Positions 8,414-11,113 of a stretch of DNA of 64,000 nt are shown in pieces. The notes beneath the pieces are model-generated. The model was not told the DNA's origin, did no database searches, and was given only the letters and a program-made list of their open reading frames with translations. Position numbers and translations under genes: made by a program. The stretch is from the sequence record NC_054934.1; one strand, written 5' to 3'. The stretch is from Escherichia phage teqskov. Position 1 is the first letter of the stretch; every line of letters begins with the position of its first letter.

Positions 8414-8656
8414 ATGAGATTACAACGCCAGAGCATCAAAGATTCAGAAGTTAGAGGTAAATGGTATTTTAATATCATCGGTAAAGATTCTGAACTCGTT
8501 GAAAAAGCTGAACGTCTTTTGCGTGATATGGGATGGGAAGATGAATGCGATGGATGCCCTCTTTATGAGGATGGAGAAAGCGCAGGATTCTGGATTTACC
8601 ATTCTGATGTTGATCAGTTTAAAGCTGATTGGAAAACTGTGAAAAAGTCTGTTTGA
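8414..8656 (+). CDS. Hypothetical early protein, 80 aa
   Basis: ORF with AAGGAGA SD; acidic, Cys-containing (CDGC). Confidence 0.6.
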   Translation: MRLQRQSIKDSEVRGKWYFNIIGKDSELVEKAERLLRDMGWEDECDGCPLYEDGESAGFWIYHSDVDQFKADWKTVKKSV

Positions 8657-8666
8657 GGAAAATATT

Positions 8667-8999
8667 ATGTCTGACATTCATGTAACTGGAATTTCTCAAG
8701 TAAACATTCGCTGTCAATTTAAAACTGTACCTGGGGTGACTCATATTACTTTATCACATGACCCATATTCTCGTGGAAGACAGTTAACTGGGGTAATTAA
8801 GTTTTTCGGTGGAATTGGCGGTAATGAATTTACTATAGGCGATGACGAAATTGTTGGCTGTAAATTAAAAGTTCAGAAGGGTGTGCTAGAACTTTTTAAT
8901 GATGAAGTTTTTGATGAAATCTCACAAGCAGTTAACAAAGGAATGGTAACATTAGTTAAAATGATTAAAGCTAGTGGATATGTTCCTGATCCTTTTTAA
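8667..8999 (+). CDS. Hypothetical early protein, 110 aa
   Basis: ORF with GAGGAAA SD 8 nt upstream. Confidence 0.6.
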   Translation: MSDIHVTGISQVNIRCQFKTVPGVTHITLSHDPYSRGRQLTGVIKFFGGIGGNEFTIGDDEIVGCKLKVQKGVLELFNDEVFDEISQAVNKGMVTLVKMIKASGYVPDPF

Positions 9000-9010
9000 T
9001 AGGAGATAAT

Positions 9011-9840
<830 letters not shown>

Positions 9841-9860
9841 AATAACACGTGGCGGAAAAT

Positions 9861-10208
9861 ATGAATTTTAATTATTACCCTATTCTATTAGAAAAAGACG
9901 CGAAACAACCAAAATGGCAGGGTCCTCAGTTTATTAAAGGCGTCTATCAATTAGTAGTTCCTAAAGACAAGATTTATAGCAGTTGTTTCACTGAATCCGC
10001 TTGTAGTATTTTCGGTAATAGTTCTCCGTATTGGAATTTTGATATAAAGCTTGACAGAAATATCGATATTTGGTTGAAAGCTATGGATATCGGCAATATC
10101 ACGTTTGATGAGAATAATTATCATATTATTGGTCGCTTTTCCAAGCGTGGTAAAGAATTGTATTTTACGCCTGAAATTGAAAGAAAATTTGATGCTAAAC
10201 CGTATTGA
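9861..10208 (+). CDS. Hypothetical protein inserted between frd and td (no recognisable motif)
   Basis: 115-aa ORF from ATG 9861 (track GTG start at 9849); occupies a roughly 410-bp spacer where T4 frd and td overlap directly. Confidence 0.5.
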   Translation: MNFNYYPILLEKDAKQPKWQGPQFIKGVYQLVVPKDKIYSSCFTESACSIFGNSSPYWNFDIKLDRNIDIWLKAMDIGNITFDENNYHIIGRFSKRGKELYFTPEIERKFDAKPY

Positions 10209-10252
10209 TTATTAGCTTCATAAAATGTATTATAATTTATATAAGGTACTAA

Positions 10253-11113
10253 ATGAAACAATACCAAGATTTAATTAAAGACATTTTTGAAAATGGCTAT
10301 GAAACTGATGACCGAACAGGCACAGGAACAATTGCTTTGTTCGGTACTAAATTACGCTGGGATTTAACTAAAGGTTTTCCTGCAGTAACGACTAAGAAGC
10401 TCGCCTGGAATGCATGTATTTCTGAGTTATTGTGGTTCTTATCAGGAAGTACTAACGTAAATGATTTACGTCAACGTACTCATGGATCTTTAATTTCAGG
10501 AAAAACAATTTGGGATGAAAACTACGAAAACCAGGCCAAAGACTTAGGTTATCATAGCGGTGAACTTGGTCCAATTTACGGAAAACAGTGGCGTGATTTT
10601 GGTGGTGTAGATCAAATTGTAGAAGTTGTTAATCGTATTAAAACATTTCCCAACGATAGGCGTCAAATTGTGTCGGCATGGAATCCAGCTGAACTCAAGC
10701 AGATGGCATTACCTCCTTGTCATATGTTCTATCAGTTTAATGTGCGTAACGGATACCTTGACCTCCAATGGTATCAACGTTCGGTAGATGTTTTCCTCGG
10801 TCTTCCATTTAACATCGCGAGTTATGCTGCTCTTTTGCATATTGTTGCTGACATGTGTGAACTAGTTCCGGGCGATTTGGTATTCTCGGGTGGTAATACA
10901 CACATTTATTCTAACCATATTGAGCAATGCAAAGAGATATTAAATAGAACTCCTATGGATCTATGCAAACTCAGTATTAATTGGCCTAATGGATTCAGTC
11001 AATGCGATACTGAAACTCAAATGTATTGGTTAACTGAATATATGACAGCACGGGATTTCGTTCTCAAAGATTATCAGTCCCACGGTGTATTGAAAGGAAA
11101 GATGGCGGTGTAA
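10253..11113 (+). CDS. td: Thymidylate synthase, uninterrupted (no group I intron)
   Basis: 286-aa continuous ORF MKQYQDLIKDIFENGYETDDRTGTGTIALFG...PPCHMFYQFNV...GKMAV; full-length TS in one exon. Confidence 0.95.
   Translation: MKQYQDLIKDIFENGYETDDRTGTGTIALFGTKLRWDLTKGFPAVTTKKLAWNACISELLWFLSGSTNVNDLRQRTHGSLISGKTIWDENYENQAKDLGYHSGELGPIYGKQWRDFGGVDQIVEVVNRIKTFPNDRRQIVSAWNPAELKQMALPPCHMFYQFNVRNGYLDLQWYQRSVDVFLGLPFNIASYAALLHIVADMCELVPGDLVFSGGNTHIYSNHIEQCKEILNRTPMDLCKLSINWPNGFSQCDTETQMYWLTEYMTARDFVLKDYQSHGVLKGKMAV

Follow-up and report, generated by a model that had tools for sequence, protein, structure and literature searches.

The window, by which we mean the whole stretch of 64,000 nucleotides of Escherichia phage teqskov (NC_054934.1) that was analysed, carries a small gene between those for dihydrofolate reductase (frd) and thymidylate synthase (td). 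All of the features of this locus lie on the plus strand. The frd gene (9256 to 9840; 194 aa) ends with a TGA stop codon at 9838-9840, and td (10253 to 11113; 286 aa), which is intron-less and represents a rare divergent allele, begins after an interval of 412 bp (9841 to 10252). This agrees with an earlier reading of the locus made from the sequence alone (the sequence-only reading), which had placed about 410 bp and a 115-aa open reading frame (ORF) between the two genes. The ORF, here called gene X (9861 to 10208), is the single sizeable one in the interval and lies on the same strand as its neighbours; it runs from an ATG at 9861 to a stop codon at 10206-10208, with an in-frame GTG at 9849, and encodes a protein of 115 aa, ~13 kDa and pI 8.5 that corresponds to RB32ORF229c and to PHROG 1928. 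The ATG at 9861 is favoured as the start codon because the aligned homologues begin MNFNYYPILLE. A Shine-Dalgarno-like GGCGGA (9851 to 9856) is found 5 nt upstream of this ATG and is kept in the window, in T2, T6 and FriedrichZschokke and in the divergent Shf125875 allele, and we infer that it is a putative ribosome-binding site for X.

Downstream of X, a spacer of 44 nt (10209 to 10252) contains a promoter-like element and the AAGG ribosome-binding site of td. The promoter-like element consists of a MotA-box-like TAGCTTCA followed by TATAAT/TAATTT, with a sigma-70-like match at 10205-10233, and is kept in T2, T6 and FriedrichZschokke; in Shf125875 the X-td spacer is 13 nt long and ~31 nt of the promoter-like sequence are absent. 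A start site directed by this putative promoter would fall within the td ribosome-binding site, and sigma-70-like sites are no commoner in the frd-td interval than in shuffled sequence. The interval has no terminator, and between 9600 and 10500 there are no Rfam families above threshold and no tRNA.

The search for flanking direct repeats that the sequence-only reading had proposed gave a pair, D1, whose copies TAAATGAAATAACAC (9834 to 9848) and TAAATGAAACAATAC (10250 to 10264) are identical at 13 of 15 positions and spaced 416 bp apart. The left copy comprises the last frd codon, the frd stop and what appears to be a vestigial ATG-AAA-TAA, while the right copy includes the td start codon. The two genes overlap in T4 (NC_000866), where the stop codon of frd and the start codon of td share the sequence ATGA, just as that reading had stated. 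T4 itself has no copy of X at this position, so that the observation which that reading had named as refuting its view, the same ORF in T4, was not made. Upstream of frd, between it and frd.1 (8414 to 8656), the window contains two more small ORFs, one of 110 aa (8667 to 8999; PHROG 3566) and one of 81 aa (9011 to 9256; PHROG 3183), the latter being RB32ORF231c. The frd.1-frd gap is 71 bp in T4, has room for the 81-aa ORF only in T2 (where it is unannotated, AY310907.2), and holds the 81-aa ORF and a 119-aa ORF in T6.

Distribution and conservation of gene X

A megablast search with the 412-bp interval returned 361 phage records at 80-100% identity, nearly all of them coliphage-type T-evens by organism name; the records examined among these were Tequatroviruses and one mosaic Mosigvirus. 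At the protein level X has homologues in 579 phage records, with tblastn adding 218 beyond the carriers of the segment at 26-47% identity. The contiguous T4-type junction, counted with an 80-nt probe across the T4 junction, was present in only 35 records, held by T4 isolates, RB55, RB59, vB_EcoM_112, G28, F1, FN, HY03, SG1, JEP6, G2133, FL12, FL18, ECO07P1/3 and CJY920. The T4 junction is the minority state in its own genus, and X carriage is the majority state in Tequatrovirus. With 361 records carrying X against 35 with the T4 junction, and with T2 and T6 among the carriers, the suggestion that X is lineage-specific has to be abandoned; the rest of that suggestion, that X is a genuine, non-essential and motif-less accessory gene inside the frd-td-nrd operon, has held.

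X is already known as a catalogued hypothetical gene, and no function has been assigned to it anywhere. Its product matches PHROG 1928, a family of unknown function, with an E value of 8.4e-36 over residues 4-111 and profile positions 2-125 of 126, and the family search of the 115-aa product returned this match only; the sequence-only reading had likewise found no motif that it could assign. The T6 record labels the gene RB32ORF229c, and in the older T2 record (AY310907.2) it is present but unannotated. RB32ORF229c and the T2 and T6 orthologues are the same gene at the same frd-td position, with no substantive difference, and in other Tequatroviruses the protein is 94-99% identical. Most GenBank records describe X as a hypothetical protein, but other labels are in circulation: "putative homing endonuclease" in the BASEL phages FriedrichZschokke and AndreasVesalius and in ValerieMcCarty04, "putative glucose-1-phosphate adenylyltransferase" in pSe_SNUABM_01 and SF2-1, and "reductase" or "dihydrofolate reductase" in ECO78, HMD-9, ADUt and JLBYU24. 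The adenylyltransferase and dihydrofolate reductase labels were rejected, as X has no Pfam or NCBIfam match to such enzymes. Our literature search found no paper naming RB32ORF229c, PHROG 1928 or a gene of the frd-td interval.

Alleles of X, frd and td were compared across phages by Nei-Gojobori counting. Relative to T2, the window allele of X has no non-synonymous and 15 synonymous differences, so that the protein is 100% identical and dN/dS is 0; the corresponding counts are 2 and 19 against FriedrichZschokke (dN/dS 0.018) and 9 and 29 against Shf125875 (dN/dS 0.046), and dN/dS rises to 0.09-0.12 against two uncultured relatives whose proteins are 63-66% identical. In the same genomes dN/dS is 0.10-0.21 for frd and 0.06-0.15 for td, so that of the three X is under the tightest constraint. 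Synonymous sites in X have diverged as far as those in frd among members of the genus (pS up to 0.46). These substitution patterns, and its conservation across phage records, set X far apart from a chance ORF, and we take it to be a bona fide, translated and probably vertically inherited accessory gene.

The X-Y-Z cluster across the Tevenvirinae

Inspection of representative loci showed that up to three small genes occupy the frd-td interval, which we have named X (the window ORF), Y (its paralogue) and Z (68 aa). At least eight other genera of the Tevenvirinae carry a homologue of X (26-47% identity) between frd and td; the interval holds one in Jiaodavirus, Karamvirus, Kanagawavirus, Gelderlandvirus and Roskildevirus, and one adjoins frd in Moon, CHI14, EcS1 and PEi26. 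Lineages differ in which of the three genes they hold. The full X-Y-Z set is present in Kanagawavirus and in two Logan contigs, Karamvirus CC31 and Gelderlandvirus STML-198 carry X-Y, and Roskildevirus Cronus carries Y-X. X stands alone in Jiaodavirus, where it overlaps both frd and td, and in Tequatrovirus (the window, T2 and T6), while Dhakavirus dhaeg has Z alone; T4, Mosigvirus RB69 and the Dhakaviruses VR5 and WG01 have no interval gene and join frd to td through ATGA. The junctions within the cluster are mostly overlapping stop and start codons, and therefore co-transcription, and probably translational coupling, with Frd and Td is indicated. In Enterobacter phage Entb_45, a Kanagawavirus, frd is annotated as two pseudogene fragments in the locus examined (1502 to 2016), with X, Y, Z and td intact downstream.

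X and Y match each other in hhalign with a probability of 99.2% and an E value of 1.4e-19, and both match PHROG 1928; by these profile comparisons they are paralogues. Y, as found in Karamvirus, Kanagawavirus, Gelderlandvirus and Roskildevirus, shares with X the QKKW, HGxY and GRFxKxG motifs, the fold family and the PHROG, but it is only ~21% identical and has an insertion of ~15 residues after the QKKW motif. Y was absent from the window and from every Tequatrovirus examined, and a paralogue search with the X and Y profiles found none in the 64-kb window or in 15-kb regions of T4 and RB69. Between the Tequatroviruses and the L010/L011 lineage the identity of X is 63-66% and that of gp32 is 64-65%, as vertical descent predicts.

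The stable position of X bears on the possibility that it encodes a free-standing homing endonuclease, or is what decay has left of such a gene, its presence and absence then reflecting mobility. The T4 genes mobE (between nrdA and nrdB) and segG (between genes 32 and 59) are, like X, small, patchy in their presence and located between conserved genes. X is present or absent among close relatives, its region is rich in recombination and adjoins the I-TevI intron, and the FriedrichZschokke, AndreasVesalius and ValerieMcCarty04 records carry the label. Unlike mobE and segG, however, X has neither a nuclease motif nor a nuclease fold, is under purifying selection, keeps its synteny across genera and has a tandem paralogue, which is atypical for such genes. 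No GIY-YIG, HNH, LAGLIDADG, His-Cys box, PD-(D/E)xK, EDxHD or other nuclease family was matched at E<=10 by any of 22 members of the X family, the Pfam search thereby confirming the sequence-only reading, which had seen neither a GIY-YIG nor an HNH signature in the ORF. These members share no invariant Asp, Glu, His or Cys, and there are no structural matches to nucleases. The selection is very strong (dN/dS 0-0.05) and shows no decay, the position is fixed in at least eight genera, and the divergence of X tracks that of core genes such as gp32. A homing endonuclease is thus largely refuted, and we consider it very improbable; with the nuclease motif missing, purifying selection strong and the position stable across genera, the idea that X is the remnant of a mobile cassette fares no better.

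Loss of X in T4 or re-insertion in its relatives

The sequence-only reading took the interval for an insertion into a junction that normally overlaps. The direction is most likely the reverse, with T4, Mosigvirus and some Dhakaviruses lacking the genes that an X-Y-Z ancestor had, and we think it highly probable that T4 lost X rather than that the carriers gained it. X, Y and Z would ancestrally have sat together between frd and td in the Tevenvirinae, and the lineages would have kept differing subsets, most Tequatroviruses retaining X alone. In T4 and its nearest relatives a precise deletion of 416 bp between two copies of TAAATGAAA would have removed X and given rise to the textbook ATGA overlap of frd and td, since recombination between the copies leaves the stop of frd and the start of td intact. 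Mosigvirus and some Dhakaviruses would have arrived independently at the same X-less end state.

Several observations support a deletion. T4 differs from the X carriers by exactly 416 bp, the same distance as that between the two copies of D1, and its sequence passes from matching the frd flank to matching the td flank within the exact 9-mer TAAATGAAA (9834-9842 and 10250-10258); deletion is favoured because the T4 breakpoint lies within this 9-bp exact repeat. The sequences closest to T4 frd (96.6%) and to the first 540 nt of T4 td (96.9%) are those of the X-carrying T6, and of T2; the alleles of the window and of Shf125875, both of them X carriers, branch outside this group at ~86% to T4. 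The T4 frd and td alleles are thus nested among those of X carriers, and deletion is therefore favoured. It is favoured also by a comparable event that affects Z: the Dhakaviruses WG01 and dhaeg differ by a precise indel of this gene between AATGA junctions, with identical flanks. Tequatrovirus with its X and Dhakavirus with its Z have kept complementary parts of one cluster that more distant genera hold intact, and the ancestor of the Escherichia coli T-evens therefore probably still had the cluster.

In the opposite history, the overlapping junction would already have been present in the ancestor that Tequatrovirus, Mosigvirus and Dhakavirus share, and T4 would keep this ancestral state; recombination would later have re-inserted an X segment from a more distant T4-like phage just after td codon 4, and the vestige of a td start (ATG AAA TAA) would have been left ahead of X. 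The 20-nt junction TATAAATGAAACAATACCAA is identical in T4 and RB69 and similar in VR5 and WG01, as such an ancestor would predict. D1 flanks the segment, its left copy resembles td codons 1-4 in the manner of a decayed td start, and in comparison with L010 and L011, whose frd-X junction is shorter, this left repeat appears as a surplus of ~16 nt. The X proteins of Tequatrovirus and L010/L011 are also more alike (63-66%) than those of L010 and Kanagawavirus (50-54%), whereas Td groups the other way. The repeat is nevertheless a poor witness, as its only exact part is the 9-mer TAAATGAAA, a common gene-junction motif that occurs 10 times in the window where 3.1 copies would be expected, and the next 6 nt match at only 4 of 6 positions in the window and 3 of 6 in T2 and T6. 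The 13/15 direct repeat was accordingly downgraded as proof of insertion. The presence of Z at the same site in dhaeg means that the ancestor of the clade probably had the cluster, the T4 flanks nest among X-carrying alleles, and both the depth of synonymous diversity of X in the genus (as great as that of frd) and the agreement of its identity to L010 with that of gp32 speak against a re-insertion. We regard re-insertion as clearly unlikely.

Arguments from nested alleles are weakened by the heavy mosaicism around frd and td. The window Frd is 86% identical to those of T4 and T2 and 94% identical to the Shf125875 allele, and its C-terminus (...ESVYK*) is the same as in T4 and RB69. Compared with T4 and T2, window frd shows 88-96% identity at its ends but only 55-80% in the middle (approximately codons 60-120), the whole gene being 93% identical to the allele of the Mosigvirus Shf125875. 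The window Td is 80-82% identical to those of T4, T2 and RB69, and only 13 phage records match window td at >=99% identity, with 466 at 80-90%. Over its first ~120 nt td matches T4 and T2 at 93-98% identity, which then falls to 71-85%, and a recombination breakpoint inside td is implied. Mosigviruses show mosaics of their own: Shf125875 has a Tequatrovirus-type frd and X beside an RB69-type td, its frd being lengthened by an extra A so that it overlaps X, and FL18 combines a T4-type frd/td junction with a td intron.

All of the phages with a T4-type junction that we inspected (T4, ECO07P1, FL18 and G2133) have the td intron with I-TevI, and the intron insertion site is only ~550 bp from the frd/td junction. 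I-TevI occurs in 216 records, including those of the X-carrying phages T6 and IME340, and a strict rule tying the intron of td to the T4-type junction was rejected, I-TevI being common in X carriers as well. It might still be that the X-less junction spreads by co-conversion during intron homing.

Protein X and its possible roles

Searches of Pfam, NCBIfam and PDB sequence profiles gave no match for X, and the 22 diverse members of its family have no recurring Pfam match. The sequence-only reading had also reported no transmembrane segment, and on direct reading of the protein no long hydrophobic stretch was seen. When 1.84 billion representative proteins were searched exhaustively with the family profile, only ~20 clusters were recovered, all stand-alone proteins of 95-119 aa, with no fusions of X to informative domains; two repeat-rich eukaryotic proteins (P0021 and P0023) in the same search were judged to be false positives. 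A word-indexed search for relatives gave three close ones. Across the 22 members only Q16, W19, G27, G91, K95 and G97 are invariant, with L9, Y29, N79, F93 and F102 nearly so, and the family has a median pI of 8.7. None of the invariant positions holds an acidic residue, His or Cys, which speaks against an enzyme that depends on a metal.

An AlphaFold2 model of X, built with the alignment of the members, has a pLDDT of 92.2 and a pTM of 0.84, and comprises strands at residues 6-12, 27-34, 62-64, 80-82, 86-96 and 99-104 and a helix at 68-76. It may be described as a small beta-barrel with one helix, in the OB-fold-like order b1-b2-b3-helix-b4-b5. The model has no significant structural neighbour, and its likeness to established OB domains falls short of significance. 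In BFVD its only matches were to T4-like phage proteins that are likewise uncharacterised, one of them apparently the 144-aa Y paralogue of Cronus. Both lists of matches to PDB structures, none of them significant, consist mostly of OB folds (HIN, Teb1, Cdc13, S1, SSB and RPA, as well as RMI, Stn1-Ten1 and RuvA domain I). As modelled, X resembles the OB folds of SSB/RPA, S1, HIN, Teb1 and Cdc13 in the order of its elements, with the helix between strands 3 and 4, in its size, and in having conserved basic and aromatic residues in loop 1-2 and hairpin 4-5. In the model, the K15-Q16-x-K18-W19 loop and the G-R-F-x-K-x-G hairpin would be placed as the ligand-binding regions of an OB fold are.

Our best guess is that X is a non-enzymatic, mildly basic binding protein of ~13 kDa that is co-expressed with Frd and Td. 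The positions of the conserved loop and hairpin lead to the expectation that it binds single-stranded nucleic acid or a partner protein early in infection; this we put forward tentatively, as a leaning that is less likely than not to be right. A link to the thymidylate cycle or to the dNTP-synthesising complex, suggested by gene position only, is slightly less likely still. A place for X in the T4 dNTP-synthesising complex would be supported by its adjacency to frd and td and by the stop and start codons it overlaps with them, in several genera. X is dispensable, at least in the laboratory, because T4, RB69 and others lack it.

X might instead be an anti-defence or host-takeover factor acting outside nucleotide metabolism, with the interval serving as a tolerated accessory slot, and the sequence-only reading had offered this as one example of what the gene could be. 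Among the accessory genes of the T-even phages, those concerned with anti-defence or takeover are usually small, early, dispensable, phage-restricted and motif-less, and X, in an early operon and with no enzymatic motif, fits this profile; the content of the interval also varies, X, Y and Z each being present or absent. Anti-defence genes are usually fast-evolving and mobile, however, and X is almost invariant in the genus and keeps one position across genera. Nor was X matched in the literature searched on screens of T-even accessory genes. We consider this role rather unlikely, and about as probable as the link to the thymidylate cycle; it concerns function only and is compatible with the deletion history proposed above. 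A further proposal, which we hold to be decidedly unlikely, is that X and Y represent an undescribed small beta-barrel fold that acts directly on the thymidylate cycle or the DNA-precursor machinery, or that counters a host defence aimed at nucleotide pools. X might then tether Frd and Td to each other, or link both to gp32-coated DNA. If this were true, T2, T6 and ~90% of Tequatroviruses would hold a capability that T4 has lost.

Taken as a whole, the explanation that we prefer, in which X is a real gene that was lost in T4 and encodes a non-enzymatic binding protein, has in our estimation a probability of roughly 0.7. Nothing about X gives a sign of a new kind of biological system, and it is best seen as an ordinary gene with a small evolutionary twist. 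The use of T4 as a reference is misleading here, as a gene missing from T4 is easily taken for an insertion elsewhere, and the textbook overlap of frd and td is a minority arrangement in Tequatrovirus that is most likely derived. Being absent from T4, the phage in which nearly all of the genetics was done, X has never been studied. As a protein that is near-invariant in its genus, restricted to T4-like phages and confidently modelled with no known structural relative, it is a candidate for characterisation. The frd-td interval as a whole appears to be a small, decaying X-Y-Z cluster that has been trimmed repeatedly and precisely at ATGA-type junctions, and it illustrates neatly that genes can be lost from phage operons with translational coupling without harm to their neighbours.
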